Below are positions 24,533-47,787 of a DNA stretch of 64,000 nt, piece by piece. Made by a program: the position numbers and the translations under genes. The notes under the pieces were generated by a model. It worked only from the letters and a program-made list of their open reading frames with translations, searched no databases and had not been told where the DNA came from. This DNA is from Chitinophagaceae bacterium (lineage in GTDB: Bacteria > Bacteroidota > Bacteroidia > Chitinophagales > Chitinophagaceae): NCBI GenBank assembly GCA_032110825.1, contig JAULVY010000089.1, forward strand, positions 140 to 64,139, written 5' to 3'. The number at the start of each line of letters is the position of its first letter. Within the stretch, counting starts at the first letter, position 1.

Positions 24533-25111
24533 ATGTTTACCGGAATAATTGAAGCGGTTGGAACCATTGAAAGTATTGAAAACAATGGGTCTAACAGGCA
24601 TTTTTGGCTTCGTTGTCCTTTTATTGATGAATTGAAAATCGACCAAAGTTTAGCCCATGATGGGGTCTGCTTAACGGTTGATGGGTTAAAAGAGAGCCAA
24701 TATCGAGTTACAGCAGTTGCTGAAACCCTAGAAAAAACGAATTTAATGGACTGGAAACCGGGAAAAAAGGTAAATCTGGAGCGTGGAATGATTTTGGGCT
24801 CTCGAATTGATGGACATTTGGTACAGGGGCATGTGGACTGCACGGGAACATGTATTGAGGTAATAGACCAGGATGGCAGTTGGAAATTCAGCTTTGAATA
24901 CCCCGAAAAATTCAGAAAGTTGATAATCGAAAAAGGATCTATTTGTGTGAACGGAACCAGCCTAACGGCCTTTGATTTGCGAAACAATCAATTCTCGGTT
25001 GCTATCATCCCCTACACGTATAACAACACGAATATCAATCAGTTACAAAAAAACTCCAAGGTGAACTTGGAGTTTGATATGGTGGGGAAGTATATTATGA
25101 GTAAATGTTAG
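24533..25111 (+). CDS. ribE: Riboflavin synthase
   Basis: MFTGII N-terminus, HDGVCLT, GHLVQGHVD, NGTSLT and VNLEFD motifs. Confidence 0.97.
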   Translation: MFTGIIEAVGTIESIENNGSNRHFWLRCPFIDELKIDQSLAHDGVCLTVDGLKESQYRVTAVAETLEKTNLMDWKPGKKVNLERGMILGSRIDGHLVQGHVDCTGTCIEVIDQDGSWKFSFEYPEKFRKLIIEKGSICVNGTSLTAFDLRNNQFSVAIIPYTYNNTNINQLQKNSKVNLEFDMVGKYIMSKC

Positions 25112-25239
25112 GAACAAGCTTCATCACCTGCCCCCGAGGAAGGTTCTCCTAAGGTTTCACATTGGGCGGAACCTTTTTCAGTTTTAGACACAGGGACTAT
25201 ATCTAAAATTGTCGGCTTTTGCCATTGTAACTTGCTCAT
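25108..25239 (-). CDS. Lasso peptide precursor (A), 43 aa: MSKLQWQKPTILDIVPVSKTEKGSAQCETLGEPSSGAGDEACS
   Basis: Translated by hand (ATG 25239, TAA 25110-25108); starts 19 bp after the cyclase stop on the same strand; WxxP leader motif, Thr before the predicted cleavage site, Gly/Ser/acid-rich core, C-terminal Ser. Confidence 0.88.
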   Translation of the reverse strand: MSKLQWQKPTILDIVPVSKTEKGSAQCETLGEPSSGAGDEACS

Positions 25240-25258: not shown

Positions 25259-27202
25259 CTAAAGAACTTTCCTGAGAAATCGAAATAATGAAAGATTTTC
25301 TATGAATTTATATCCTAATTCATACTTTTTTTCAATATCTGTTTCTGATTTCATTTTTTTATACATCTGAACTAGGTTAATGCCAATCTGACTATTATGA
25401 CTGGAATTAAAAACGTGTAGTGGTTTTGAAAATTCAGAAAGTAAAATACCAATACTTGAGTCATTTGAAATTAGAAATGGTAAATCTCTCATTTGATAAC
25501 GCTTTTCATTTTGATTAATTACCGAAAATTCAAATTTCATTTTTAGTATGCTACTAAGCATATATTTCAAATTCCCATTCTTAAAAAAATAGTACTCAGG
25601 AACTGAAAATGAAAATTTTTGAAATCGAATATCCGCAGTTGGATCAAGCATTAAAATAGCTGATTCCTTGCTTTTTTGGTACCATGACCCAGTTATTAAT
25701 ACTTGATTGTATTTACTATACTTCAATCTAAATTTTTTCGAACTTAAAAAAAAAGATATCCCAACAATAATATCCTCGCTTTTTATTCTTCGTTTTTCAA
25801 ATTTTTTAAAAACAAGTAAGTCTAGTGTTTTGTTGCCAGTTTTTTCATACAAGATATATAACGAGAAAAAAGAATAATAAATCATTCTCAACCAAGAAGC
25901 AAGAGGCCTCTTTATAAAATAGCTCAAGGTAAATCTGAGTGACTTAGAGTACTTTTCTTTGAATTGATTTAAATTATGAAAAGCTTTTTTCCACTTAAAG
26001 TGAATCAAATCATGTAAAACAATATTAGTTGGACAATAAGATAATGTTATGTTCCCAAGTTGTGCGTTTAGAATTATTTTCAAAGAATCATCTTTGGCTT
26101 GCTTAATCATCTTATCTAACCATAATTCATGTGCAGATATTTTAGGATTTAAAAAATCTAATCTCTCATGAGACCTAAACAATTGACCAAAACTATAATT
26201 TGAACAATTTATAGTATGATGAATAATATTTGTAAACTGCTTTGTAAATGAATTTGCAATTATGGATTCATCGTTTTTTTTAATGCCTGGAATTTCAGTA
26301 TCATAAGTATATATTGGAGCAAGTGTATATGCCCAAAGTGAATCTTTCTTATATTCAAGCTCTTTGGATAAATAATAAGTTATGCACGTTGAATCGCTTC
26401 CAGAACTCAAAAGAACTCCACTTTTTACACTAGCAGATAATTTAGAGCGAACTGACAGGTATAACGCAGACTCAAATTCAAAAAAAAGATCGTTCTCGTC
26501 TTTGAAATTCACTTCAGGTTGATCAAATATTTTTTCACTCCAATCAAATCTTTCATATTTTCCCAACGAATAAAATAAACATTCCCCCGCAATTAATTCG
26601 TTCACACTTTTAAACAACGTCTTTCCTATTTCTATTCTTAACTTATTTATCAGTAATCTTGACACTTGATATGAATCGATATCAATTTCTTTGCCTAAAA
26701 AAATTGAAAAAAGACTAATCTCATCCGAGAAATATAAACAACCGTTTAATTCGGTAAAAAATAGCCCACAATTTCCCGTTGCACTTCTATATAATGAAAC
26801 AGATACGACTTCTTTTGAATACACAATAAAAGCCCAATCTCCTTCCAAATGAAGAACGCATTTATCCTTCCATTTTTTATAGGCCATCATGGCCAACAGT
26901 GAGTCGGGAGTCACCTTAAGCTCAGCTTGTGTTAATCCTAATTTGTCCCCAAGCTCATCGCGATAATCCAAACGAAAATGGCCTGCCAATACATAATTTT
27001 TACAGTCGCTAAGTAATGGTTGTCTATCATACTCCGCCGCATTCCCAACTCTTAACATCAGATGTCCTACAGCAAAATGATCATCAACAAAAGTTTCCAG
27101 CCCATCATAGCCGTCTTGATGCACAGCATTTTTCATCTGCTCAAATTGATCTAAGTCAATTCCATCCCCACCCGGTTTGAATATTCCAAAAAAACCACTC
27201 AT
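25259..27202 (-). CDS. Lasso peptide cyclase (C protein; asparagine synthetase-like)
   Basis: Non-catalytic Ntn-like N-terminus (MSG, no Cys1; RLDYRDEL, LEGDWAF), PP-loop variant LSSGSDS and DPTADIR; coupled to B2 by an ATGA overlap. Confidence 0.88.
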   Translation of the reverse strand: MSGFFGIFKPGGDGIDLDQFEQMKNAVHQDGYDGLETFVDDHFAVGHLMLRVGNAAEYDRQPLLSDCKNYVLAGHFRLDYRDELGDKLGLTQAELKVTPDSLLAMMAYKKWKDKCVLHLEGDWAFIVYSKEVVSVSLYRSATGNCGLFFTELNGCLYFSDEISLFSIFLGKEIDIDSYQVSRLLINKLRIEIGKTLFKSVNELIAGECLFYSLGKYERFDWSEKIFDQPEVNFKDENDLFFEFESALYLSVRSKLSASVKSGVLLSSGSDSTCITYYLSKELEYKKDSLWAYTLAPIYTYDTEIPGIKKNDESIIANSFTKQFTNIIHHTINCSNYSFGQLFRSHERLDFLNPKISAHELWLDKMIKQAKDDSLKIILNAQLGNITLSYCPTNIVLHDLIHFKWKKAFHNLNQFKEKYSKSLRFTLSYFIKRPLASWLRMIYYSFFSLYILYEKTGNKTLDLLVFKKFEKRRIKSEDIIVGISFFLSSKKFRLKYSKYNQVLITGSWYQKSKESAILMLDPTADIRFQKFSFSVPEYYFFKNGNLKYMLSSILKMKFEFSVINQNEKRYQMRDLPFLISNDSSIGILLSEFSKPLHVFNSSHNSQIGINLVQMYKKMKSETDIEKKYELGYKFIENLSLFRFLRKVL

Positions 27203-27624
27203 CGTTTTAATGCTTGATGTGTAAATGATGCGACCACTGTAAAGTTATCCATACCGGGTTTACCAGTAACAATATAATTACCCGACTTTACCCATGCGTG
27301 AGCCGACAATCCATTTCCTTCCTTCGCTAATCCAAAATAAATGGTTGAAGGAATTGATCGATTTCCCAACATCCATCTAGCCGTCAATGCCTGATCATAA
27401 CATTTACTGGAATGAAAACTCAATTTAGCAGCTCGTTGTATAGCTACATAAATAGATTTTACCTTCTGCGTGTTAGAGGATGATTGAACTTGCAATTCAT
27501 TTAGCTTACCCAAGTTCGCAGCAATTTTTTTAAATGGGATAATAAGAATAATCAATTTGGAAGTATGAAGGAAGATGAAAGCTTCCACGAATAAAGCAAG
27601 ATCTTGGAATGTTCTGTATTTCAT
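27199..27624 (-). CDS. Lasso peptide leader peptidase (B2, transglutaminase-like)
   Basis: KCYDQALTA (Cys), YFGL and AHAWV (His) motifs; ATGA overlaps with RRE and C. Confidence 0.93.
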   Translation of the reverse strand: MKYRTFQDLALFVEAFIFLHTSKLIILIIPFKKIAANLGKLNELQVQSSSNTQKVKSIYVAIQRAAKLSFHSSKCYDQALTARWMLGNRSIPSTIYFGLAKEGNGLSAHAWVKSGNYIVTGKPGMDNFTVVASFTHQALKR

Positions 27625-27890
27625 TCGATTTGCGAAATAATACCTTTTTCAACCATTTGATTCAATAACTCCTTCGTATCATGCACGCATAATTCTCTAT
27701 CAACTTCAAATTGTTCCATTAATTTTTCAACCAATTGATTGAAATCCATACCATCTTTCAAATGATTCCAAATCACTGAAGCAACAGAATTTAATCCAAA
27801 ATAAAATCCAGAGTCCATGTCTAACATCACGACTTCATCTCCAATTTTGGACTGGATCACCTCTTTTTTATGAATATACCGTTCTGCCAC
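27621..27890 (-). CDS. PqqD-family RiPP recognition element (lasso B1/E)
   Basis: GDEVVMLDMDSGFYFGLNSVASVIWNHL and VDRELCVHDTKELLNQMVEKGII; 89 aa. Confidence 0.94.
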   Translation of the reverse strand: MAERYIHKKEVIQSKIGDEVVMLDMDSGFYFGLNSVASVIWNHLKDGMDFNQLVEKLMEQFEVDRELCVHDTKELLNQMVEKGIISQIE

Positions 27891-27944: not shown

Positions 27945-28847
27945 TTATGAATTTAATAATTCTGCAACTGCATCTACAACTTCTTGAACATGATCCCCTT
28001 CTGCTGGTCGTGAAACAACAAAAGCATTTACTTGCCCCGCAAGCAGACTTAAAACCTTAAAATGCTCTTCCTTTAGATTCATATGCCCCAAATTTTCACC
28101 TCGATACGCATTGGAATCTAATCGCTGGAACAGCTCAATACCCGTTAAAGAACTAACCGAAACTTCGCTGCATTCATCGGACTTTTGTAAAAAAATGGCT
28201 TGCCTTGGTATATTAGGTTCCATGGAAAATGTTTCGTGAAAATAAAGTCCATACTTCTCCATATCAGGACGAATTTTTCGATCTACACGATCCCAAATCT
28301 TAAACCGATCTATCGTTTCTTTCCAAAGTTTAATCATGGGATATGAGGAATCTATCCAGACCTCATCTGCGTGTATTCTGGGTACAACTACATCATCAGA
28401 AATGACTTCGAATCCCTGCTCAAGCAATCCAGCCAACGTTGTGGACTTCCCCGAACCAGAATGACCAAAGACTAAAATGGTCTTTTCAGATTTTCGAACT
28501 GCGGCACAATGCAATGGAATTTGCCCTTTTTGCTGCAATGCAGCTGCAAAAGCATTGGATAAACAAAAAAGTCTCACTGCATCATTCGATGCATTTTGAA
28601 ATGGTTTGATCACAATTGAGTTACCACCCTGTACCTCATACTGGGCAACATGGGGTACTATAAGTTTATAAGATACCTCCTCAACATGCACAAACGATTT
28701 TTCTCTCAATGAATCAAAATTAGAATCAGAATATCCATCTTGAACTGAAACCATTAATTCAAATGAATCTTCTGATGAGATGGGCATTAACTCAGGAAAG
28801 GAGATTTCCGATGCAAGCTTTAACCCATATGCCCAATAATGAAACAC
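27945..28847 (-). CDS. HPr-kinase-like lasso peptide kinase (PadeK/PsmK-type)
   Basis: PLHCAAV, Walker A GHSGSGKST, ISDD Walker B, and SSYPMIKLW. Confidence 0.88.
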   Translation of the reverse strand: MFHYWAYGLKLASEISFPELMPISSEDSFELMVSVQDGYSDSNFDSLREKSFVHVEEVSYKLIVPHVAQYEVQGGNSIVIKPFQNASNDAVRLFCLSNAFAAALQQKGQIPLHCAAVRKSEKTILVFGHSGSGKSTTLAGLLEQGFEVISDDVVVPRIHADEVWIDSSYPMIKLWKETIDRFKIWDRVDRKIRPDMEKYGLYFHETFSMEPNIPRQAIFLQKSDECSEVSVSSLTGIELFQRLDSNAYRGENLGHMNLKEEHFKVLSLLAGQVNAFVVSRPAEGDHVQEVVDAVAELLNS

Positions 28848-28853
28848 TTCATT

Positions 28854-28873
28854 TATCTTTAGGCATAAAGATA
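28854..28873. promoter_or_regulatory. Perfect inverted repeat TATCTTTA-GGCA-TAAAGATA in the 42-bp divergent intergenic region of the lasso cluster
   Basis: Each arm resembles a -7 box (TAnnTTTG) read outward. Confidence 0.55.
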
Positions 28874-28889
28874 CTAACTAAGTTTTCGA

Positions 28890-30662
28890 ATGCAACATCG
28901 ATCGGACGCAAAAAGATTCTTCCGTGAAATAAGAAGTATGACTACCGAAATACTTTCGGTTGATATGCCTGTTTCTATTGGTGTAATATTATCTAAACTA
29001 ATTGTTTCGATTCTACCCCTATCCATCCTGTGGTTGATAAAAACACTGGTTGATAAAATCAGTAGTCTCCAAATTGATTTTTACGAACTTCTATTCTACA
29101 TTATTCTTTTCTGTATTATCCAAATCGCCATCTTGGTAATGCAACAAGTCAGTTCATTTTGGGAATCTAGATTGCAAAACAAAACCCTAGACTATTTTTC
29201 AAATCGTATCATTGAAAAATCAGTTTCGATTGATTATACCTATTTTGAAAATCCTGCATTTCAGAATACATTGTTTTTGGCTCAAAATCAAGCTCGTTTT
29301 AGAATCAATCAATTGCTACCTGCCATTTATGGGAGCTTTGGCAATGGCATTTCTCTCATCTTCATCATTGCCTTTTTCATTGGAATCAAAGCTTACTTTT
29401 TTTTATTGATACTCATTCTTGCATTACCCATAACGCTTCAAAAATGGTACGAAGGAAAAAAAATGAATGACCTTGACTTTACATTATCCAGCAAGGAAAG
29501 AGAAAGCAATTACATCTTCCAATCTCTTACCGGATTGCAGTCAGCAAAAGAAGTGAGGCTGTATAATTTTGAAAAATCATTTCAAAACAAATACAACCAG
29601 ATTCGGACATTGATTGTAGGAGAAAAAATGAAAATTCAAAAAAGCTCAATTAAAAAAAACACAGTCATCGGTGTATTAGAAATTTTATTTGCCGGCGGCT
29701 TATTTGCTTATTTGGGTTATGATGTTTTGAGAGGCAGTATAAGTTTGGGTTTATTTATATTGTACCTACAGGGTACTCAACGCCTACAAACAATTTCAAA
29801 AGGCTTTTTCCAGTCCCTTTTGCAACTCTTTCAATTACGACTTTTTGTTAAGGATTTACATGCATTCCTAAATTTGAGTGAAAACAAAAACATAAATCCG
29901 AGTATACAAGAATTAGAAATTAACTCTTTATCTATTCGCAATCTTTCATTTCGCTATCCAGGTAATACCATACACACTCTAGAAAACATAAATTTAAATG
30001 CCCAAAAAGGTAAAATTATCGCTTTAGTCGGCGAAAATGGATCGGGCAAATCTACGCTTGTGAAATTACTCGCTGGCTTATATAACCCGGCCCCAGATTC
30101 AATCTTTGTTAATAACAATGATCTACTTTCCGTCCCCAAACCAGTTTGGTATAGGCAATCGGCTGTTTTATTTCAAGATTTTGAAAAGTATTTTTTTGAA
30201 GTGGACAAAAACATTCATTTTGACTTGAATGAAAGCAACAATTTAAGAAAGGAAAGTATTGCCGCAGCCTCACAATCCTTGGCCCACGAATTTATCCTGA
30301 ATTTGAGTAAACAATACGATACCCGTTTGGGAAATTTATACGAAGGTTCTGAACAGTTGAGCGGAGGACAGTGGCAAAAACTGGCTTTAGCTAGAATATT
30401 TTTTAAAGATCGGCCGGTTGTAATCTTAGATGAACCCAGTAGTGCTTTAGATGCATTTGCAGAGTTATCTCTTTATGAAAATATCAAGAATAGTTTTAGC
30501 AATAAGATCGTCATTATCGTTTCGCATCGATTGTACAACCTAAAAATAGCTGACTACATCTATGTGCTGTCGCATGGAAAAATTGCAGAAGAAGGAAATT
30601 TTAATGATTTGATTCAGCAAAACGGATTATTTTATTCGATGTACGAAAAACAAAAAATCTAA
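28890..30662 (+). CDS. ABC exporter (TMD+NBD), lasso D protein
   Basis: N-terminal TM helices, GENGSGKST, LSGGQWQKLALAR, ILDEPSSALD and VSHRL. Confidence 0.9.
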   Translation: MQHRSDAKRFFREIRSMTTEILSVDMPVSIGVILSKLIVSILPLSILWLIKTLVDKISSLQIDFYELLFYIILFCIIQIAILVMQQVSSFWESRLQNKTLDYFSNRIIEKSVSIDYTYFENPAFQNTLFLAQNQARFRINQLLPAIYGSFGNGISLIFIIAFFIGIKAYFFLLILILALPITLQKWYEGKKMNDLDFTLSSKERESNYIFQSLTGLQSAKEVRLYNFEKSFQNKYNQIRTLIVGEKMKIQKSSIKKNTVIGVLEILFAGGLFAYLGYDVLRGSISLGLFILYLQGTQRLQTISKGFFQSLLQLFQLRLFVKDLHAFLNLSENKNINPSIQELEINSLSIRNLSFRYPGNTIHTLENINLNAQKGKIIALVGENGSGKSTLVKLLAGLYNPAPDSIFVNNNDLLSVPKPVWYRQSAVLFQDFEKYFFEVDKNIHFDLNESNNLRKESIAAASQSLAHEFILNLSKQYDTRLGNLYEGSEQLSGGQWQKLALARIFFKDRPVVILDEPSSALDAFAELSLYENIKNSFSNKIVIIVSHRLYNLKIADYIYVLSHGKIAEEGNFNDLIQQNGLFYSMYEKQKI

Positions 30663-31762
30663 TTGCTTTTTATCCTTCGGAATACCCAAACAAATGGCTT
30701 GAGAGGGATGTAGAGAAAAAACAATGTATCCGGCAGAGGAATGATTTTCCAATCCAACGGAGATATCATGTATTTCAATAAAAGTCGAATATTCATTATT
30801 TGTTTAGATAAACTAAAAAGATACTGAAAGTGTTTCCATCGATTTGAATCATTGGCATTAAAACCATTCTCGTCGCTCATTAACGTAAAAATATAGTCTA
30901 ACTTTCTTCTGTGTAAAGTATTGTCATTAAGATATTGAAAGCCTATTGGCAATGGTTGAGAAAAAATAGCAAGTAAGACTTTTAAAGAAATTTCAAGATG
31001 TTCCAAACATTCTAATTCAATTGCCCTCTGCCGAACAGAAGTCCAGTTTAAAGTTGATTGTCGAATAATCATGAATAAATCGACCAACCACTTTAATCTA
31101 AACCACCCATGCTCGGTTCCATGTACTGATAAATACAATAGCAATTCTACCTCATCAAGCGAACGAACATCCTTTAGATTAAACCCTCCCAGTGCTCCCC
31201 TCCATTTCCAATGCAATTCTACAATTGCTGGAGATGTTGTGCCGTCCCCAAAAAAAGGCATGTCGTGATTCACGTAATGTAAAAATCTCTTCTGTGTAGG
31301 AGTATACAATTCATAGTCTTTCTCCCTTTTTAAGCCAAAATCAACCAACAAATCTGATACTAGTTCAATATCTCCCTCCGAAACCAATAGATCAACATCC
31401 AAAACATGCCGCAAAGCTAAATCAGTGTAATAACGTTCTGACAAAGACACCCCTTTCAAAAAAACATGTTTGATTTTTCTTTCATTTAGGCGTTGTCCAA
31501 ACTGCAATTGAAATCGCTTAGCGATTAAAGCTGTTTTTTGATTTTGCAGTACTTCCTGCGTCCATTTCAAATGAAATGATTCACTGAACTGCTTTGAATC
31601 TGAAAGTTTAGAATACACAAGAGAACCTACTCGATGCCTATGCATCAAATTACTTAAGTTGGTTTCATCGATTTGCGAATCAACTTCAGAAAGTTTAGTC
31701 GAACTGCATTGAATTGTTTCAAGAATGAGTTTAAATTCGGGTGATGCCAATGCTGAATACAT
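30659..31762 (-). CDS. Nucleotidyltransferase family protein (NTP_transf_5; PadeN/PsmN-like)
   Basis: FLKGVSL...YY...RHVLDVDLLV, VELHW, and HGTEHGWFRLKWLVD. Confidence 0.85.
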   Translation of the reverse strand: MYSALASPEFKLILETIQCSSTKLSEVDSQIDETNLSNLMHRHRVGSLVYSKLSDSKQFSESFHLKWTQEVLQNQKTALIAKRFQLQFGQRLNERKIKHVFLKGVSLSERYYTDLALRHVLDVDLLVSEGDIELVSDLLVDFGLKREKDYELYTPTQKRFLHYVNHDMPFFGDGTTSPAIVELHWKWRGALGGFNLKDVRSLDEVELLLYLSVHGTEHGWFRLKWLVDLFMIIRQSTLNWTSVRQRAIELECLEHLEISLKVLLAIFSQPLPIGFQYLNDNTLHRRKLDYIFTLMSDENGFNANDSNRWKHFQYLFSLSKQIMNIRLLLKYMISPLDWKIIPLPDTLFFLYIPLKPFVWVFRRIKSN

Positions 31763-31771
31763 AAGAATTCA

Positions 31772-34700
31772 TTATCGCATCAGGTACATTTTCCCATAAC
31801 CGCTTTTGAAATAGCTATCGGTATTGTAACTGCCTGCTCGCAATTTATCAATTTGCTTTCCGTTAATATTGGCCATCACTCGATACAGATAAACACCATT
31901 GCCTACTGGCTGTCCATATTGATCTCTGCCGTCCCATTTGTACTCAGTTATGTTATTGCCAATACGAATCGGACCAAGTTCCTCCTTTGTTATTTCTCGG
32001 ATAATCTTACCGGTAACGGTGAGAATTTGAATCCTAAAATGTGTGGGGAGTTCAGAGCCTGTAAGTGTAAATACAAAAGCAGTTGAAGTTGTAAAGGGAT
32101 TTGGATAATTCAGAAGATTGGTGATCATGGACTTGGTGTACACCTGAAACAGGACACTATAAACAATAGCCCCAGACAAATTTCCACTTCTGTCTTTTGC
32201 TGTAACAATCAGTTCATACTCTCCGTCTTCTGTCAAAAAGGGTTTAAACAATATCGAAGCCTCGTTATTATTGCCTCCAAGCGGATTGGTAGACGGATTA
32301 AATTGAAGGGTATCGTTATCAAATCGAATAGTTCGTAATGAGCCATCCGGATAACGTAGCTGGACTTTAAATAAACTAGTATCATTTAGTGCTAGATACT
32401 TAGAATCATCTTTAAGTTTAATTAAAATCGTTGGCTTGGGACTAACGATGTCCTTATTCAAAATATGAACGCCATCAAACGTTACATCCAAGTTAGGTGC
32501 GTAGGTATCGGCACGGACATGTACTACCTTGGTAAGGTAATTGTTAAAAAGATTTTGTTCAGGCTGATGATAATTGGGATTAAAATTGATGAAAATGGTG
32601 TTATCACCTGCCAGTGTTTTCGTGTCAACAGTAAAATCAATTAAAATCGTATCTCCCTTTATAATAGGCTTTCGCAATTCATTCAAAACAATCCGCGTAT
32701 TGTTTTTAGGATCTGTTAAGGTCATATAAACCATCACACTATCAAAAGGAAGATCGCTAATATTCTTAAATGCAATTGAAAACCGCATCGGCTCGCCTAT
32801 TTCTAAAGTATCTTTTACCATCGTTATGACTCCGGAAGTCAACGAGCCTTCAGGAACAGGACTATATTTCACTTGAAGGTATCTAGGTTGCCATGGGGAA
32901 TAGTTTAACGTGTCAGAACTCTCATGCTGTATTCTTAAAAATGGGAACTGTTGAGCATCAATAAAAGTCAAACTTGTATCCTTTATTAAGTCCTCACTTT
33001 GATAGAGCAAAGTTTCAACGGAAGAACCAGATAAACCAAAAACCTTATAAGCAATTTTATCTTTTGAATTTTTTTCTTGGGAAGAGCCCTTCCAATGGAT
33101 AGACCCCCAGGACTTAGCTGGCCCCACTAATTGATGACTGTTACGACCACTACTAATAATAGACTCATATGTTATTTCACTATTTAAAACATCAGTAGCA
33201 CTTTCACCTATTTTTTGATCTAACACCTTCCATTCCCCATTTGATAACTTCTCAGCGACAAATAAAAAGGGCACACTTTTCGTAAACGAATCAACAAGTG
33301 TAAAACCGATTGATTTTAGTCTATGATAAATAGAATTATTCGAGCCATAAATTAATGTATCCTGCTGCCATTTATCTATAAATTCTGGACTACTATTATA
33401 CGATAATGATGCCCAATTATTTAAGACAAGCAAAGTTCCGGATGGTACTTTATCTAAAAACTCCATTGCAAATTTACGATAGGAGCTTTGATTGTAGTAA
33501 TACCAAAATTGATACAGTTTTACAGGCCTACACTGATTAGGCATAATACTATTGTAAAGTGTGCCGCTGGTATTGTATGGATTTTCAATTGGACTTGCCT
33601 TGGCCATATCAATTAAAGTAAATTCAAATGAATTAACTGCATTGAAACAGCTACTTGAATAGAGTAGATCTAAATTATTAGCTACAGTATTAAACCCATA
33701 AGGGTGCAGCCTTGAAGTAACCCTTAGATTTTGAACTTCAGTATCAAATGCTAGGAATCGATTTGTATTATACTTTAAGTCTGTATATGTGTTTTTTAAA
33801 TACTGATAATAATGCGACTGATTCCAACCCGTAGAACTATTGCTTAGGTAAACAAAAGAAGAGGTAGATGACCATTGGACAGGCATGGATGAACTTGTTG
33901 TTGCACGTGCCACTCTCCAATAAAAAACGAGACTATCTCGTAATTGCAACGATGGACTAAACTCAATTAATCCACCTAAGCTGGTCTGGTTTTGGGTAAC
34001 CTTCAATGGTGAATTGAATAGCTCCGTTGTATCTACTTCCAATATAAAATTGGTTGGTGTTTGAAAAAACAAACTTGTAGAAGCTATCAGTTTAACCGAA
34101 TTGGTATTTACAATAGCAAACTGCTGTGGGCTAACTGGTCTAACATCGTCTTCAGAAATCGAAAATACTTTTGAAGCCGAGTTGTTGATGTTGGTTATTT
34201 CTTTTATCAAATCGCTTCCATCCAAACTCACCAAAATCTTATTTTGACCTTTATCATTTAACGGGTTTATCGGGACAGAAAACTCAATGGAGTCCACATT
34301 GAATAGTGGCTTACGAATTGCATCGTAAAGTACAACTACAGTTCCATCCGGCAACTCACGCTTGATCGTTACCCGCAATGAATCCCGTGTAGCCTTACCG
34401 ATATTGTAAAACTTGACTTTTAAATCAAAGTTGCTGTTGGTGATGTTCAATGGGTTCGGACTAACTCGAATCAATGGCTCTTCAATGGCATAATCTGGAA
34501 GTGGCTGAGGATAAAGTGAAACAGCAGGGTCACCACCAAGTAAGATTTGTTCAACAGTAATTTGATTAAAGAAATCAAAACTACCCCCTTGAGTTAAGAC
34601 ATCATTCAACGTATTAAGCTGGAGTTCACCAATATTAGACATATAATCCTGCTGTGAAATTCTCCTATACAAATTATACGTATACAGATTCAAATAATTA

Positions 34701-36844
34701 ACAATCCCAAAATGGGTACTGGCTAAAAAACCAATACTACCGCGCTTAGGAGTTAATACATAGTTTTCTGTTATCGATTTTTTCCCAGTGGTAGAACGTA
34801 ATGTGTCGTAAATGAAAAAGTTACCAGAGTTACAACCATTTGCCAAGAACAAAGGGTATTTACCGGGGTTCTCAAAAATAGTTGGGTCATCTAAGTTAAA
34901 TTCCATCGAGTTGGCAGATGAATGCCCGAAATAGGTAATCATCCCCATCCCTTCATTGAATAGAGAGGATAAAGCCCCTGAATTTACAAGGTCTATACCC
35001 GCAGAAGTAACTTTCTCAAAATTATATACTTTGGCCCCATATGAAGTATCTTTTACCAAATTACCAGCGGTATTCATATAGCCCAGGATGGTAGCTTGCA
35101 AAAACGGATCGCCACCTCCAATTACATGGGCAAAGTTTTTCATCCATGCCTTGTCCTGAACCGTTTGATTGGCTGAATTTAGTACGAGATTATGCTCTTT
35201 AACTTTTTCCAGATATGCCATCAACTCATCTCCTGTAGTTACTGAAATCCTCCCAATAGGAGTTTCGGGTGTAGGATCCAAAGAGGTTGATGCTAATATA
35301 TTATCTGAACCCGGATTGCCAAAAGTAGGTATCAGGTTTATCGATTCTGTTACTCCTCGGTTTTCATTGTATCGATATTGGTCGTATGTAATCCCTTTAC
35401 CAACCAAAAGAATATACTTTATAGGCAGTGAATATTTGGTCCGCACAAACTCTAAAAAGTTTTTAATAGACAGCGGGTGCTTTTTAATTCCAAAAGCAAA
35501 TTGATCCACCAATTCATCTATATCATAAATCCCAACCTTATAAGACCCACCTTCTACACTTGATCGGTAGGTTTGATAATTTTGCAAGGCATCACCAGAA
35601 GAACTTTTTCGAATACTATTATGCGAAATAATCAAATAATCGCCCTGAGCTGCCGCAAGTGAATAGTCAACAAATTTCTTTCGCTGAAGTCCGGATACAT
35701 TTTTAAACTGCGCGGGCGATGTTGCTAAAAGCACAAAATTTCTTTGTAAACCAGCAGGTAAGGCAAAGCGAAATTTTCCTGCAACAGTCATATCCGCCTG
35801 ATACCGCTTGTTGTTGGTAAGATCATACAAAACAGGTGCCGCACTGTTACTATTGAAATTGGTTATTTCTAAAAAATTACCTGCTGTTGTTGCTGGTAGC
35901 GAAAATTCAAAGACCTGTGATCCCCCAAAATCAAATTGCCGGGGATAGGTTAACTCGTATTTACCCAATGTTATGCGATCATTGGATACGTCTGAACCAT
36001 TGATTATTCTTATGGTATCTACTGTTCGTCCAATCTGAGATTTTGTAAACCCAAAACTCCGAATTAAAGAAACGAAATAATTCATTGGATTATCAAAAAC
36101 AAAATTCCCGTTAATCATTACCTGCAGTCTTCTGGGATTTTGAGCATTACCAAAAGCTGTTATTCTAAAACTAGGGTCAGGGCCTAGGGGTGAAACTTTT
36201 AAATCACTGTATTGCTCAACCAAAGGATTTGATGGGTTGATATTTCTGCTGCTCCAGCCTTCTCCATTATCGTAACTAGATGAATACACATATACACCCA
36301 CTACGGCAGCCAGACCTGGATTGATCTGATCTTTAAAATTTCTAGAAAGGGTGTGCATGAAATAAGGCTCAACAGGAAGTGTATTTGAGCTAACGTTGTT
36401 TGCCGAAGCTGTAATTCGTGCATTGGGATTAGCCGAATTTACGGTAAGAAAATATGCAGCAGTATCCGTTTGCAAACTGAATTTATCGGAAAGTTGATGA
36501 GCTGGTACTTTATAAAGAGCTGCATCCACTTTTCCATCGTTCATTTTTCCATAAAACTCCAAATAATCTGCTGAACCCAATTGTCCGGATGAAACACTGG
36601 TATACAATGGAACTTCTACTCCGTTTCTCCACAATTGAAAATACTCGGCATTGGTTGTAGATAATCCCGCAGCTTGTAGCGTTAACATGGGAATACGATA
36701 CAATCCGTCTTCCCCTACTTTAAATTTATAATAGGTCTTGCTATAATCAATCCATGCGTTATTGAATTGAGCTTGCAACTGTGTTATACTGAACAGAAGA
36801 ACTGCCAGACCTAGAAAAAATTTATATGCTACTCCTCTAGTCAT
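31772..36844 (-). CDS. Large C25 (gingipain/PorU-like) cysteine peptidase with T9SS C-terminal domain
   Basis: Signal peptide; YFGHSS (His) and ANGCNSG (Cys) dyad; C-terminal NYPNPF...WDGRD...GVYLYR domain; coupled to porV. Confidence 0.85.
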   Translation of the reverse strand: MTRGVAYKFFLGLAVLLFSITQLQAQFNNAWIDYSKTYYKFKVGEDGLYRIPMLTLQAAGLSTTNAEYFQLWRNGVEVPLYTSVSSGQLGSADYLEFYGKMNDGKVDAALYKVPAHQLSDKFSLQTDTAAYFLTVNSANPNARITASANNVSSNTLPVEPYFMHTLSRNFKDQINPGLAAVVGVYVYSSSYDNGEGWSSRNINPSNPLVEQYSDLKVSPLGPDPSFRITAFGNAQNPRRLQVMINGNFVFDNPMNYFVSLIRSFGFTKSQIGRTVDTIRIINGSDVSNDRITLGKYELTYPRQFDFGGSQVFEFSLPATTAGNFLEITNFNSNSAAPVLYDLTNNKRYQADMTVAGKFRFALPAGLQRNFVLLATSPAQFKNVSGLQRKKFVDYSLAAAQGDYLIISHNSIRKSSSGDALQNYQTYRSSVEGGSYKVGIYDIDELVDQFAFGIKKHPLSIKNFLEFVRTKYSLPIKYILLVGKGITYDQYRYNENRGVTESINLIPTFGNPGSDNILASTSLDPTPETPIGRISVTTGDELMAYLEKVKEHNLVLNSANQTVQDKAWMKNFAHVIGGGDPFLQATILGYMNTAGNLVKDTSYGAKVYNFEKVTSAGIDLVNSGALSSLFNEGMGMITYFGHSSANSMEFNLDDPTIFENPGKYPLFLANGCNSGNFFIYDTLRSTTGKKSITENYVLTPKRGSIGFLASTHFGIVNYLNLYTYNLYRRISQQDYMSNIGELQLNTLNDVLTQGGSFDFFNQITVEQILLGGDPAVSLYPQPLPDYAIEEPLIRVSPNPLNITNSNFDLKVKFYNIGKATRDSLRVTIKRELPDGTVVVLYDAIRKPLFNVDSIEFSVPINPLNDKGQNKILVSLDGSDLIKEITNINNSASKVFSISEDDVRPVSPQQFAIVNTNSVKLIASTSLFFQTPTNFILEVDTTELFNSPLKVTQNQTSLGGLIEFSPSLQLRDSLVFYWRVARATTSSSMPVQWSSTSSFVYLSNSSTGWNQSHYYQYLKNTYTDLKYNTNRFLAFDTEVQNLRVTSRLHPYGFNTVANNLDLLYSSSCFNAVNSFEFTLIDMAKASPIENPYNTSGTLYNSIMPNQCRPVKLYQFWYYYNQSSYRKFAMEFLDKVPSGTLLVLNNWASLSYNSSPEFIDKWQQDTLIYGSNNSIYHRLKSIGFTLVDSFTKSVPFLFVAEKLSNGEWKVLDQKIGESATDVLNSEITYESIISSGRNSHQLVGPAKSWGSIHWKGSSQEKNSKDKIAYKVFGLSGSSVETLLYQSEDLIKDTSLTFIDAQQFPFLRIQHESSDTLNYSPWQPRYLQVKYSPVPEGSLTSGVITMVKDTLEIGEPMRFSIAFKNISDLPFDSVMVYMTLTDPKNNTRIVLNELRKPIIKGDTILIDFTVDTKTLAGDNTIFINFNPNYHQPEQNLFNNYLTKVVHVRADTYAPNLDVTFDGVHILNKDIVSPKPTILIKLKDDSKYLALNDTSLFKVQLRYPDGSLRTIRFDNDTLQFNPSTNPLGGNNNEASILFKPFLTEDGEYELIVTAKDRSGNLSGAIVYSVLFQVYTKSMITNLLNYPNPFTTSTAFVFTLTGSELPTHFRIQILTVTGKIIREITKEELGPIRIGNNITEYKWDGRDQYGQPVGNGVYLYRVMANINGKQIDKLRAGSYNTDSYFKSGYGKMYLMR

Positions 36845-37977
36845 TAATATGCAAATTCATTTTTAGGGAACACAAATTTCAGAGAAAATAAATGCGTATA
36901 CAAAGGATTTGATTGGTTAGCCAAATTGGTAAAGGCATAATCAATTTCAACATTCTTCACTTTAAAACCTACTCCCATTCCAGGTTGATATATCCAAACT
37001 TTTTGTTGGTTCGTTACATCACCATCTTTCAAGCCTCGTTGAAAATTATAGATCCCTGCCCGACCAAATACCGATTTCTTATACCCAAATTCAATCCCTA
37101 ATTTAGGATCCATATTTACCAAGGATGAACTCAACAGAACATTTCTTCGACCATCAAAGGTAAGATCGAAGTTCATTTCAGCCATAAAATGTGTAGTTAG
37201 CGATATATCAGTATAATAAAACCCTCCCAACGTCAATCGAGGTGCCGTTAATTCAATGGAACGAATCGGTATATCATTTTGTGCTAAATAGAGAGCCTCT
37301 TTTTCTTTCTCTGTAAATCTAAAATTCCATGCATTAAAGGTAGTAGTGACATCTTTAGCAACAACTCCTACCCCAAATTTTTTAGTCCGGTATTGCAACC
37401 CTGCATCCAAACCAAATCCCCAAGCTTTGGCAAAACTCCCCACGCTTCGATGGATGATTTTTGCATTGGTTCCAAAAGAAAAGGTTTTTTCATCATCACC
37501 ATAAATTACTTGAGCATACGAGAGCAAGAGCGCGTAGTCGGCCGAAGAAAAAGATTTGATGTTGTTGTAATTGATGGTGCCATCGGGTTCTACTAAAAAA
37601 AGCGTATTGGGTATATCATCAACTGCAAATCGCATAAGAGATACCCCCAGGGTTCTTGTTACGTATTTTGGATCTCCGATAGGAAGTGCTACTGCAGCAA
37701 AATCATATTTCCCAATTCCTGCGAAGTATTCGGCATGCATGAGAGAACCTGTAGAAAAATCTTTGACTTCGGTTAATCCAGCTGGATTCCAATAACCGGA
37801 TGTAGCATCTCCGGTACCAGCTACCTGAGCACCACCTAAGGACAAACCCTTGGCACCTGCACCAATATTCAGGAATTCATTGGAATACTTCCTGAACTGG
37901 GCATTAGCCTCCACAAAAGCCATTCCCAAAAATAAAATGGCCAGAAGCCTGATTCTATTTTTCATCTGATTTGACAA
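36844..37977 (-). CDS. porV: PorV/PorQ-family outer-membrane beta-barrel (T9SS shuttle-like)
   Basis: KYSNEFLNIGAGAKGLSLG, YWNPAGL and IDYAFT motifs. Confidence 0.75.
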   Translation of the reverse strand: MSNQMKNRIRLLAILFLGMAFVEANAQFRKYSNEFLNIGAGAKGLSLGGAQVAGTGDATSGYWNPAGLTEVKDFSTGSLMHAEYFAGIGKYDFAAVALPIGDPKYVTRTLGVSLMRFAVDDIPNTLFLVEPDGTINYNNIKSFSSADYALLLSYAQVIYGDDEKTFSFGTNAKIIHRSVGSFAKAWGFGLDAGLQYRTKKFGVGVVAKDVTTTFNAWNFRFTEKEKEALYLAQNDIPIRSIELTAPRLTLGGFYYTDISLTTHFMAEMNFDLTFDGRRNVLLSSSLVNMDPKLGIEFGYKKSVFGRAGIYNFQRGLKDGDVTNQQKVWIYQPGMGVGFKVKNVEIDYAFTNLANQSNPLYTHLFSLKFVFPKNEFAY

Positions 37978-43010: not shown

Positions 43011-43871
43011 CTATTTATTTTTCATACCCTGGATGCAAGCAGAAAGACTTTCTTTCCAGTTAGCTACCACATATTCAAAATCTTGAGTCAATTTTTTCTT
43101 ATCCATAACACTATAGGCTGGTCTTTTAGCCGGTGTAGGATAGGATGAGGTAGGGATTGGTTTTACCGTACACTTGCTATTGACCTGTGCCTTAATTTCT
43201 ACAGCAAAATCATACCAGGAAATTACACCTGCATTGGAAAAATTATAAATACCCGAATGCCATGTTGGATAGGAAATGGCGTACATGATGAATTTTGCCA
43301 AATCGGCTGCCCAAGTTGGACTTCCAATTTGATCGTTGACAACTGAAATTTCTGGTCGCTCATTCATCAGTCGCAACATCGTCTTCACAAAATTATTACC
43401 GTAAGTCGAATACACCCAGGATGTACGGATTACCAAGGCATCAGGAGCAAATTTCAATGCTTGCAACTCCCCCTCAAGCTTGGATTGTCCATATACGGAA
43501 ACAGGACCTGTAACATCGTTTTCGGTATAGGGTTTATCCCCCGTTCCCGGATAAACATAATCAGTAGAAACATGAATAAACTTACACCCATGTGCGTGAG
43601 ATACAGCAGCCAATATGCCAACGGATTCCGCATTGATCAAATAGGCCATTTCTTTTTCTTGCTCGGCTTTATCTACCGCCGTGTATGCAGCACAATTGAT
43701 GCAATAGTCTGGCTTAACGGTAGCGAAGATATTTCGGACTAACTCAAAATGATGTATGGGCAGATCTTCCCTGGAAAAGAAATGAAATTCATAATTAGGG
43801 AATGAATGGGACAAATCTCGAATCTCCTTCCCCAATTGTCCGTTTGCACCCGTGATTAAAATTTTCTTCAT
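43011..43871 (-). CDS. rfbD: dTDP-4-dehydrorhamnose reductase
   Basis: GANGQLG, AAYTAVDKAE, STDYVY and YGQSK motifs. Confidence 0.96.
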   Translation of the reverse strand: MKKILITGANGQLGKEIRDLSHSFPNYEFHFFSREDLPIHHFELVRNIFATVKPDYCINCAAYTAVDKAEQEKEMAYLINAESVGILAAVSHAHGCKFIHVSTDYVYPGTGDKPYTENDVTGPVSVYGQSKLEGELQALKFAPDALVIRTSWVYSTYGNNFVKTMLRLMNERPEISVVNDQIGSPTWAADLAKFIMYAISYPTWHSGIYNFSNAGVISWYDFAVEIKAQVNSKCTVKPIPTSSYPTPAKRPAYSVMDKKKLTQDFEYVVANWKESLSACIQGMKNK

Positions 43872-43878
43872 GATTCAA

Positions 43879-44427
43879 TTAAAAATTGAAACTCATTTCA
43901 TTGAATCTAGGCAAAATCAGATCTTTCTCAGAAACAATTTGATTTGCTTCAGGAATTTTCCAATCAATGGATAAATCCGAATCATTGTAAACGATGCCGG
44001 ATTCAGCCGACTTATTGTAAAGCGCATCACATTTATACATCACATCTGCCGATTCACTCAAAACAGAAAAACCATGTGCGAAACCTTTTGGTACTAGCAA
44101 CTGCAGTTTATTCTCCTCTGAGATTTCAAGCGCAAAAGATTTACCAAAAGTCGGCAACCCTTTACGTAAATCTACCACCACATCCAAGATGCTCCCTTGT
44201 AAAACACGAATTAATTTGGTTTGTGCATGTGGAGCATTTTGAAAATGCAAACCTCTGATTACACCGTATTTGGAATGCGATTGATTATCTTGAACCCATT
44301 CGAAGTGCAATGCAGCATTCAAATGCGTTTGCTTATTGTAGCTTTCAAAAAAATAGCCGCGATCATCAGCAAATACCGAGGGAGTAAGAATGATTAACCC
44401 TTCAAATCCTGTTTGTTCTATTTTCAT
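43879..44427 (-). CDS. rfbC: dTDP-4-dehydrorhamnose 3,5-epimerase
   Basis: DDRGYFFE, RGLHFQ and VPKGFAHGF motifs. Confidence 0.97.
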   Translation of the reverse strand: MKIEQTGFEGLIILTPSVFADDRGYFFESYNKQTHLNAALHFEWVQDNQSHSKYGVIRGLHFQNAPHAQTKLIRVLQGSILDVVVDLRKGLPTFGKSFALEISEENKLQLLVPKGFAHGFSVLSESADVMYKCDALYNKSAESGIVYNDSDLSIDWKIPEANQIVSEKDLILPRFNEMSFNF

Positions 44428-44429
44428 GT

Positions 44430-45482
44430 TTAGCGACTCACGTATTGATTTTGATAGAATTGTTGATACGCTCCAGAAGTTACATTTTTAATCCATTGCT
44501 CATTAGCTAAGTACCAATCAACTGTTTTTTCTAGTCCTTCTTCAAATTGCAAAGAAGGTTTCCAGCCCAACTCATCGTTCAGTTTAGTTGCGTCAATTGC
44601 GTAGCGCTTATCATGTCCCGCCCTGTCTTTTACAAAGGTGATCAATTTAGAACTGTCACCTTCACTGCGGTTTAATTTTTGATCCATGATCTTACAGAGC
44701 AAATGAACAATATCTAGATTTTTCCATTCGTTAAACCCTCCAATATTGTAGGTTTCACCCAATCTCCCTTTATGGAAAATAACATCTATAGCGCGGGCAT
44801 GGTCCTCAACCCAAAGCCAATCACGTACATTATCGCCTTTGCCATAAACCGGAAGTGGCTTCGAATGAACAATATTATTGATCATGAGAGGCAATAGTTT
44901 TTCAGGAAACTGATGAGAACCGTAATTATTGGAACAATTTGAAATCACAACCGGCAAATTATAAGTATGATGATAGGCACTTACCAGATGATCAGAAGAA
45001 GCTTTTGAGGCAGAATAAGGCGACCGTGGATCATAAGGGGTCTCTTCCGTAAAAAATCCAGTCTCCCCCAATGAGCCATACACTTCATCGGTTGACACAT
45101 GATAAAACAATTTACTCTCTTTTTCTTTCCAGTTTTGCTTGGCTGCGTTGAGCAATACAGCCGTGCCGATCACATTGGTTTTTACAAAAGACAAGGGGTC
45201 CATGATCGAACGATCCACGTGACTTTCGGCTGCCAAATGAATTACAGCATCTACATTTTCGTTTGCAAATAAATCATTGATGAATACCTCGTCTGTGATA
45301 TCTCCTTTTATAAACCGATAATTGGGATGATCTTCAACATCCCGTAAATTTTCTAAGTTCCCCGCATAGGTTAATGCATCCAGATTTATAATTTCATAAT
45401 CTGAATAGGTATTTAAAAACAAGCGAACCACATGCGAGCCAATAAATCCGGCACCTCCGGTAATTACTATTTTTTTTCTCAT
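44430..45482 (-). CDS. rfbB: dTDP-glucose 4,6-dehydratase
   Basis: GGAGFIG, AAESHVDRS, STDEVYG and YSASK motifs. Confidence 0.97.
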   Translation of the reverse strand: MRKKIVITGGAGFIGSHVVRLFLNTYSDYEIINLDALTYAGNLENLRDVEDHPNYRFIKGDITDEVFINDLFANENVDAVIHLAAESHVDRSIMDPLSFVKTNVIGTAVLLNAAKQNWKEKESKLFYHVSTDEVYGSLGETGFFTEETPYDPRSPYSASKASSDHLVSAYHHTYNLPVVISNCSNNYGSHQFPEKLLPLMINNIVHSKPLPVYGKGDNVRDWLWVEDHARAIDVIFHKGRLGETYNIGGFNEWKNLDIVHLLCKIMDQKLNRSEGDSSKLITFVKDRAGHDKRYAIDATKLNDELGWKPSLQFEEGLEKTVDWYLANEQWIKNVTSGAYQQFYQNQYVSR

Positions 45483-45485
45483 GTT

Positions 45486-46466
45486 TTAATTTGAAGTGAA
45501 TTCCTTTGGTTGTTTTGTCAACTCCTCTTGGGGTAGCGACTTAAAATACTCGTAGGTCTTTTTTAACCCTTCTTCGCGAGAAACTTTAGGCTCCCAATTT
45601 AAAATCGATTTGGCTTTGGTGATATCGGGTCGTCTTTGCTTGGGATCATCAACCGGTAGAGGCTTGAAAATAATTTTAGATTGAGCCCCAGTAAGCTTGA
45701 GGATTTCTTCGGCAAATTCCAACAACGAAATTTCAACAGGATTTCCGATATTAACAGGATTAGCATAATCGCTCATTAACAATCTATAAATTCCTTCAAC
45801 CAGATCATCTACGTAACAAAATGAACGGGTTTGTGATCCATTTCCAAAAACGGTCAGATCTTCTCCCCTCAAAGCTTGTCCAATGAAAGCTGGAAGAGCT
45901 CTGCCATCGTTTAAACGCATTCTAGGCCCGTAAGTATTAAAAATTCGAACAATGCGTGTTTCAACGTGATGATAGGTGTGATACGCCATGGTGATAGACT
46001 CCATGAACCGCTTGGCTTCATCGTAAACACCGCGTGGACCAACCGGATTCACATTGCCCCAATATTCTTCTGTTTGAGGATGAACTTGAGGATCACCATA
46101 TACTTCCGAAGTTGATGCCACCAGAATTCTAGATCCTTTTGATTTTGCAAGTCCCAAACAGTTGTGCGTTCCCAAGGCACCTACCTTGAGTGTTTGAATT
46201 GGAATTTTAAGATAATCGATTGGACTTGCCGGTGATGCAAAATGAAGGATATAGTCCAGCGGACCTGGAACATGAATGAATTTGGTTACATCATGGTGGT
46301 AAAACTCAAATGACTTGAGTTTAAAGAGATGCTCTATATTCTTAAGATCACCAGTTATCAAATTATCCATCCCCACCACATCAAATCCTTCTCGAATAAA
46401 ACGGTCGCAGAGATGAGACCCTAAGAAACCGGCAGCACCGGTAATAAGTACTCGTTTGTTAGACAT
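45486..46466 (-). CDS. UDP-glucuronate decarboxylase (UDP-xylose synthase)
   Basis: [21 protein letters not shown] and [10 protein letters not shown] motifs. Confidence 0.92.
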
Positions 46467-46471
46467 GATAA

Positions 46472-47782: not shown

Positions 47783-47787
47783 ATTGT

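Follow-up and report, generated by a model that had tools for sequence, protein, structure and literature searches.

Judged by its gene content, a complete lasso peptide cluster of the split-B, kinase and nucleotidyltransferase type is encoded in a 64,000-nucleotide stretch of DNA (hereafter the window) from a Chitinophagaceae bacterium (GenBank assembly GCA_032110825.1, contig JAULVY010000089.1, positions 140 to 64,139). The source is a freshwater metagenome, and the metagenome-assembled genome (MAG) is uncultured. The cluster spans 25.1-31.8 kb of the window and has the order N-(D)-K-B1-B2-C-A, in which N is a nucleotidyltransferase-fold protein, D an exporter, K an HprK-like kinase, B1 a leader-recognition protein, B2 a leader peptidase, C a lasso cyclase and A the precursor peptide; N, K, B1, B2, C and A follow one another on the minus strand (Table 1). 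A pathway in which K phosphorylates the C-terminal serine of the precursor and N then modifies that phosphate is probably the best explanation of these genes. What we observed comprises genes, motifs, modelled folds and family-wide co-conservation, and from these we infer every chemical step described below.

Kinase, nucleotidyltransferase and terminal serine

B1, which is a PqqD-type RRE, is encoded together with B2 and C, and these three form the set that defines a lasso peptide cluster. All seven open reading frames (ORFs) of the cluster (N, D, K, B1, B2, C and A) are intact, and the ORFs and their domain matches are far beyond what chance would give. A preliminary description of this DNA had placed an intact HprK-like gene at the head of the operon and an NTP_transf_5-like gene at the close of the cluster. 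Both genes are real, K being full-length with an intact catalytic motif and N scoring 126.5 bits against PF14907 (NTP_transf_5), over the 31.2-bit cutoff; their places have to be corrected, however, since N, on the strand of K, precedes K and forms the upstream flank of the cluster, not its end.

The precursor, MSKLQWQKPTILDIVPVSKTEKGSAQCETLGEPSSGAGDEACS, has 43 amino acids and ends in DEACS, as the preliminary description had read it, although the gene lies at 25108-25239 and thus outside the 27945-31762 segment with which that description dealt. Its leader (M1-E21) contains W6-Q-K-P9-T-I11 and, further on, T20-E21, which fits the pattern aromatic-x-x-P-x-L with Thr at position -2. The predicted core is K22-S43, KGSAQCETLGEPSSGAGDEACS, and Ser43 becomes core Ser22 if cleavage occurs after Thr20-Glu21. 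Two collection scans yielded 72 related loci with kinases 36-48% identical to K, which all belong to Chitinophagaceae and come from freshwater MAGs or metagenomes; the 31 precursors recovered gave 28 distinct cores. The terminal residue is Ser in 27 of these cores and Thr in one, and Ser accounts for 8% of all other residues in the cores. Exactly two Cys are present in 25 cores and none in the other three, and the last Cys stands 1-7 residues from the terminal Ser. The earlier assignment of Cys21 to a two-Cys pair is therefore supported. These counts are the strongest support obtained for the terminal Ser, beside the putative disulfide Cys, as the tailoring site, and phosphorylation of Ser43 appears likely.

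At the level of sequence, K is weakly HprK-like. Its match to Pfam Hpr_kinase_C has an E value of 3.8e-5 and 23.7 bits against a gathering score of 33.3, and its match to TIGR04352 an E value of 1.6e-9 and 37 bits against a cutoff of 200, while precomputed tables assign its homologues to PF27840 ('ScmC'). We assign K as an HprK-like kinase because of three independent tests, namely a motif alignment, structure matches and an alignment with a Paenibacillus kinase. Aligned over its full length with 18 homologues, K shows H113, G128, G131, G133, K134, S135, D151 and D152 as invariant in all 19 sequences, the motif text being H113, G128-H-S-G131-S-G133-K134-S135 and D151-D152. All eight positions match, at identical spacing, the BsfK motif H148-G163-G166-G168-K169-S170-D186-D187, which is common to characterised lasso kinases (PMC10368454). 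The AlphaFold2 model of K (predicted local distance difference test, pLDDT, 89) has its best Foldseek matches in phosphoenolpyruvate carboxykinase (PEPCK; E 2e-8) and L. casei HprK/P (E 3e-6). Additionally, K aligns with the kinase of the Paenibacillus cellulosilyticus cluster at 27% identity over 97% of its length (pairwise E 1e-34); PadeK, PsmK, ThcoK and PsmN were likened by motif or description, with the K and N of this Paenibacillus cluster as sequence proxy. K is predicted, with the help of its AlphaFold2 model, to be a kinase of the HprK/PEPCK-type P-loop fold. Its family is large, a profile search of 1.84 billion proteins having returned 1,873 representatives (50% clustering) at E<=1e-30; no characterised kinase was found among the best 150 of these, the one with a named organism among ten looked up came from a Chitinophagaceae isolate, and a profile search of the PDB gave local P-loop matches only.

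N carries the motifs K103-G104-V-S106, D122-V-D124 and E182-L-H-W185, which in the form K103-G104-x-S, D122-x-D124 and E182-L-H-W185 are invariant in an alignment of 25 homologues down to 19% identity. This set reads as the signature of a Pol-beta nucleotidyltransferase, and D122 and D124 would by inference correspond to D134 and D136 of PsmN, the nucleotidyltransferase of the pseudomycoidin cluster. The AlphaFold2 model of N (pLDDT 90.5) is without a close solved relative; Foldseek returned only weak matches to nucleotidyltransferase cores (MenT1, CCA-adding enzymes, LnuA, ANT(2'')-Ia and FKRP), and a sequence search of the PDB found no match. Over its whole length, N shares 28% identity with the N of the Paenibacillus lasso cluster. 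PsmN itself presumably belongs to PF14907, a family on which a literature search brought up unrelated material only. Among the related loci, N was found in 46 of the 46 in which its position is covered, six apparent exceptions all ending inside D.

Based on published work, the closest functional precedent is the pseudomycoidin cluster psmCAKB1B2ND of Bacillus pseudomycoides, in which PsmK (poly)phosphorylates the C-terminal Ser and PsmN, termed an 'uncharacterised NTP transferase', is needed in E. coli for additions of +162/+324 Da on the phosphate; the PsmN-dependent products resist phosphatase, and mutation of D134/D136 abolishes hexose addition (PMC6993621). No activity of PsmN has been demonstrated in vitro, and the protein may just feed a host glycosyltransferase (PMC6993621, PMC11912497). 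The window cluster shares with pseudomycoidin the split-B organisation, the HprK-type kinase, an NTP (nucleoside triphosphate) transferase with an Asp pair and a Ser-terminal precursor. It differs in belonging to the Bacteroidota, in having N upstream of K (N lies between B2 and D in psm), an exporter gene on the other strand and the precursor gene at the end, and in a core with two Cys and Lys in first place; its chemistry, moreover, is a prediction.

PadeK, ThcoK, SyanK and PsmK all act on the linear precursor and phosphorylate its C-terminal Ser, and paeninodin is a class II lasso peptide, a class without disulfide bonds (PMC9266682). A conserved C-terminal Ser is what the window cluster has in common with the ThcoK and SyanK systems and with the paeninodin cluster padeCAKB1B2D of Paenibacillus dendritiformis; unlike the window cluster, the pade cluster is without N (PMC6993621). 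The Bsf cluster of Bradymonas sediminis has both K and N, and there B1 accelerates phosphorylation (PMC10368454). Its likeness to the window cluster thus extends from the gene pair to the eight-position kinase motif, whereas BsfK targets a ring residue, Ser3, the Bsf precursor ends in Asp and the Bsf leader has Ile at -2.

The features of the locus are collected in Table 1. D lies between N and K on the opposite strand, divergent from K, with the two starts 42 nt apart, and convergent with N, with 3' ends that overlap by 4 nt. The stop of a PorU2-like gene (1690 amino acids) lies 10 nt before the start of N, and a PorV2-like gene precedes PorU2. At the other end, ribE (24533-25111), a plus-strand gene for riboflavin synthase, runs towards minus-strand A, and the stops of the two overlap at 25108-25111. 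For the terminator-like hairpin beyond A there is no more than a match to the consensus, and sites of this kind are not more frequent in the region than expected by chance. A scan for sigma-70 promoters gave 26 sites against 27.5 expected, a consensus from which Bacteroidota promoters differ. One metagenome contig (run X1) is without 78 nt at 32107-32186, an in-frame PorU2 length variant of 26 codons in the population.

Table 1. Positions of the lasso cluster genes and other features in the window (aa, amino acids)
Feature	Position	Strand	Details
N, NTP_transf_5 (PF14907) nucleotidyltransferase-fold protein	30659..31762	-	367 aa; Pfam E 1.8e-36
D, ATP-binding cassette (ABC) exporter (permease + ATPase)	28890..30662	+	590 aa; ABC_tran E 3e-28; MsbA/HlyB-like
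K, HprK-like P-loop kinase (predicted)	27945..28847	-	300 aa; GTG start
B1, PqqD-like leader-recognition protein (RRE)	27621..27890	-	89 aa; PF05402 E 3e-18; NF033536 lasso_PqqD
B2, transglutaminase-like leader peptidase	27199..27624	-	141 aa; PF13471 E 2e-18; NF033537 lasso_biosyn_B2 75.9 bits, above cutoff
C, asparagine-synthetase-like lasso cyclase	25259..27202	-	647 aa; GATase_7 + Asn_synthase; NF033535 E 9.5e-41, below cutoff
A, 43-aa precursor	25108..25239	-	sequence read; homologous precursors at the same position in 30 related loci
Ser43 (core Ser22) codon, predicted phosphorylation site	25111..25113	-	sequence read; terminal Ser/Thr in 28/28 distinct cores
Cys42 codon	25114-25116	-	sequence read
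Terminator-like hairpin, 10-bp stem then T run	25051..25075	-	33 nt past the A stop, within the 3' end of convergent ribE
Sugar operon: rmlD, rmlC, rmlB, epimerase/decarboxylase-like short-chain dehydrogenase/reductase, UDP-glucose dehydrogenase, DegT aminotransferase	43011-48915		annotation

Distribution of the kinase and nucleotidyltransferase pair

In the Chitinophagaceae family of loci, the genes follow the order PorV2-PorU2-N-(D on the opposite strand)-K-B1-B2-C-A-(ribE)-rpsU-xerC. D occupies the position between N and K in 25 related loci and is absent from 23, in which N directly precedes K. The lasso genes always stand directly downstream of PorV2-PorU2 (putative type IX sorting; 31772-37977 on the minus strand of the window) and upstream of rpsU-xerC, and a different Bacteroidota lasso cluster with K and N (L082) is also near PorU-PorV. 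A fixed site beside PorV2-PorU2, at kinase identities of 36-48%, suggests vertical inheritance. In three loci, whose kinases have the highest best-segment identity to the window K (48%), the precursor (MNNNLETWSKPTLVELN[TA]NETATLCVGKSATNDDAEVGSTCSES) shares the reading frame of the cyclase ORF, with no intervening stop (L017, 10460-12568; L044, 7544-9682; L047, 1799-3937); this arrangement reads either as a C-A fusion or as a precursor translated from an internal start. A search of the literature brought up nothing relevant on lasso peptides from Chitinophaga or Bacteroidota.

Beyond this family, several lineages have lasso clusters in which a homologue of N (22-28% identity) and an HprK-like gene occur together. 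The Paenibacillus cellulosilyticus cluster, N-C-A-K-B1-B2-D, has the paeninodin order with N added, and its precursor ends in Ser. A Stellaceae (alphaproteobacterial) cluster with K and N encodes a precursor that ends in ...DKDHS and has a canonical D1-D9 ring, and on another Bacteroidota contig with a K and N lasso cluster the precursor, in which ...NTL is followed by AGASVGGDGSSQS, is likewise Ser-terminal. Two further metagenomic contigs hold N and an HprK-like gene within lasso clusters. In all, N was found only together with K in seven of the seven sampled lasso clusters of other lineages, the Paenibacillus one included. Clusters with K but no N also exist: in Sediminibacterium ginsengisoli and on another contig a sulfotransferase is the partner of K, and on the Bacillus thuringiensis plasmid pBT62A K stands alone. 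N is thus nested within the sampled clusters that contain K, which fits an action of N on the phosphate product of K.

Several of these loci differ in composition. At L083 (7001-9841), K, B2, PqqD and N lie together, and no Asn-synthetase-like cyclase was found within 7 kb on either side. The haloarchaeal plasmid pHALXA01 of Halopiger xanaduensis (L084) carries N, a K-like gene in two short ORFs, an asnB-like C, B2, PqqD and an ABC transporter, with a flippase and sulfatase-like genes as neighbours. The two loci with a K homologue and a PF00685 sulfotransferase, not N, are L081 and L080 (FUWH01000002.1), the latter from Sediminibacterium ginsengisoli, a cultured relative whose precursor, ...TWSEPVVTLISKDAVKSGAVTISEGAATKGSS, is without Thr at the usual position, has Lys and then Glu eight residues on, and ends in Ser-Ser. 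On pBT62A (L079; NZ_CP044979.1, 538499-547348), a K homologue of 23% identity is accompanied by a membrane protein of the MauE/DoxX family and three 54-residue precursors with four or five Cys after the leader motif.

Proposed pathway and competing explanations

In the pathway that we favour, B1 would bind the W-x-x-P leader, and K would move a phosphate from a nucleoside triphosphate to the hydroxyl of Ser43 (core Ser22) on the linear precursor. N would then modify this phosphate; the outcome would be a hexose in phosphodiester linkage, by analogy with PsmN, or else an intermediate that carries a nucleotidyl group. B2 would cleave after Thr20-Glu21, C would join Lys1 to Glu7 in a lactam and D would export the peptide, and a ring-to-tail disulfide between Cys6 and Cys21 would form outside the cytoplasm, directly beside the modified Ser. 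The calculated monoisotopic mass of the peptide would be 2062.821 with lactam and disulfide, 2142.787 after addition of a phosphate, 2304.840 with one hexose on it and 2466.893 with two. The preliminary description had likewise proposed a phosphorylated and possibly glycosylated Ser22, in favour of which speak the conservation of the terminal Ser, the kinase motif and the constant presence of N; for the hexose, however, the sole argument is the analogy with PsmN. A second, N-dependent modification is plausible, and we lean slightly towards it, while the identity of the added group as a hexose, taken over by analogy, is uncertain.

A number of observations weigh against this pathway. No named HprK family of Pfam or NCBIfam matches K above its cutoff. 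The regiochemistry of lasso kinases is not fixed, BsfK having Ser3 as its target, and the window core also has a Ser3. The PsmN reaction has never been reconstituted in vitro (PMC11912497). N follows PorU2 at a distance of 10 nt, an opposite-strand gene stands between it and K, and its transcription unit could be a different one. The precursors on pBT62A, beside a K homologue, end in Cys and not in Ser, so the kinase target there must differ, and one PF14907 homologue of N lies within a Wzz/Poly_export/glycosyltransferase polysaccharide cluster. From these last two cases it follows that a C-terminal Ser is not an obligatory companion of either protein family.

Among the alternatives, the one that survives best is that N is a true nucleotidyltransferase, which would transfer a nucleoside monophosphate onto phospho-Ser or Ser, as the final group or as an activated intermediate, and that a hexose is not the native decoration. 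We regard this as possible but the less likely course. The fold of N and its G-S...DxD motif are those of Pol-beta nucleotidyltransferases; its structural matches, which are weak, are MenT1, CCA-adding enzymes, LnuA, ANT(2'') and FKRP. Glycosyltransferase genes adjoin N in two distant lasso clusters with K and N and lie nearby in a third, and none is present in the window cluster. The nucleotidyl option was left open by the authors of the PsmN study, whose experiments in E. coli, the only genetic data, nevertheless gave +162 and +324 Da and no nucleotide adducts (PMC6993621).

It is unlikely that K targets an internal residue, whether core Ser3, as BsfK does in the Bradymonas core (PMC10368454), or Ser13/Ser14. 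The window core does begin K-G-S3, and the kinase related to K on pBT62A accompanies precursors that end in Cys. However, no internal Ser is conserved among the 28 cores, position 3 being Cys, Gly, Asp or another residue in the remaining 27 and neither Ser13 nor Ser14 being kept, whereas a terminal Ser or Thr is present in every one; BsfA, moreover, ends in Asp, unlike the Chitinophagaceae precursors. Ser3, Ser13 and Ser14 were therefore rejected as conserved targets.

Slightly more unlikely still is that N does not tailor the peptide but belongs to the PorV2-PorU2 operon or to surface glycan synthesis and is merely syntenic with the lasso genes. The 10-nt distance from PorU2, the exporter gene that cuts N off from K and the homologue in the polysaccharide cluster would agree with such a role. 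Against it, N occurs with K and lasso genes, and without PorU2, in Paenibacillus, Stellaceae, Halopiger and other contigs, the lasso genes stand between N and PorU/PorV in the other Bacteroidota locus, and N abuts K in the 23 family loci without D. Since N tracks K and not PorU2 in other lineages, we rejected N as a gene of the PorU2 operon.

Finally, a cryptic or decaying cluster without a product is very improbable: its product is so far undescribed and its source an uncultured freshwater MAG, but the seven ORFs are intact, order and motifs are kept in 72 loci over the whole range of kinase identities (36-48%), the cores vary while leader, Lys, Asp, Cys pair and terminal Ser stay, and weak transcript traces lie over the cluster (two metatranscriptome contigs of ~260 nt at a depth of ~2, which cover B1, B2 and C).

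The suggestion that the nucleotide-sugar operon at 43-49 kb could supply sugar donors found no support. It is an ordinary sugar set, 11 kb away from N, and PorU2, PorV2, tyrS, two methyltransferase-like genes, a Cys/Met pyridoxal phosphate enzyme and OsmC lie in between. Its expected products, going by the annotations, are dTDP-rhamnose, UDP-glucuronate or UDP-xylose, and an amino sugar, and not a plain hexose. We rejected the rml/UDP-sugar operon as a dedicated donor source because of this distance, its place behind unrelated genes and these expected products.

Ring motif and significance

The cores carry a ring motif that, as far as their sequences tell, is unexplained by the canonical mechanism. 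Exactly one Lys is present in 27 of the 28 cores, and an Asp or Glu follows six residues after the Lys in 23 cores and five or seven residues after it in the other five; among 28 shuffled cores, the Lys-to-acid spacing occurred 3.0 times on average and 9 times at most. Between the conserved Thr-x site and the Lys lies a spacer of 0-11 residues, as in the L018-type precursor, where ATCNVAGKVEGIDD...CAATS follows ...SQTL, and one of the two Cys lies in every spacer of at least four residues. With Thr-x as the point of reference, an acid at core position 7-9 is found in only nine of the 28 cores; the window core has E7. The leader Thr comes 13 residues after the Trp in 27 relatives, against 14 in the window and in L082; the Paenibacillus precursor (L078) also has it 13 residues on, with a canonical Ala1-Asp9 core immediately behind. 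The single-Lys-x5-Asp motif and the variable spacer appear irreconcilable with a canonical ring in about two thirds of the members, which points to either a second proteolytic step or new ring chemistry.

Three readings can be offered. The peptidase may cut directly before the Lys, but residues -1 and -2 would then be unconserved and the strict 0-or-2 parity of the Cys would go unexplained. A second trimming step is also possible. The third reading, on which we place a low probability, is that the macrolactam forms via the epsilon-amine of the single Lys, and not the N-terminal alpha-amine, onto the Asp or Glu about six residues on. A ring through the Lys side chain would have 26 atoms, and canonical rings of 7-9 residues have 22-29. 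The spacer of 0-11 residues would then stay as a free N-terminal 'head', so that any N-terminal extension could be tolerated, and a Cys in the head would bond with that of the tail, next to the terminal Ser with its (glyco)phosphate, in a two-tailed lasso-like topology. Such a topology, if true, would be previously undescribed, and the window peptide, with a spacer of zero and Lys1, would be its minimal member. Being spacer-free, the window peptide fits all three readings.

Paeninodin has a nine-residue ring, Ala1-Asp9. BI-32169, of class III, has a disulfide from a ring Cys to a Cys near the C-terminus, and the xanthomonins have a seven-residue ring; neither is known to be phosphorylated, and neither begins with Lys. 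The predicted window peptide would share the ring-to-tail disulfide of the BI-32169 type and the ring size of the xanthomonins, and would differ from both by its phosphate and Lys1.

To our knowledge, few phosphorylated lasso peptides and one that is glyco-phosphorylated have been characterised, all of them from Bacillota or Proteobacteria. The cluster described here, as predicted from its genes, represents the known lasso type with K and N in a new phylum, the Bacteroidota, and with a new gene order, and it unites a Cys pair with a terminal Ser that is predicted to be tailored, beside PorV2/PorU2. The related loci offer 72 natural variants of one K and N system in Bacteroidota, and the strict nesting of N in clusters with K amounts to a testable order of action. 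With the last Cys 1-7 residues from the modified Ser, a disulfide at this place would, if true, be the first combination of disulfide and phosphate tailoring in a lasso peptide. Additionally, the fixed position of the cluster beside PorV2/PorU2 suggests that its product may have a physiological role in these bacteria rather than that of a sporadic antibiotic.

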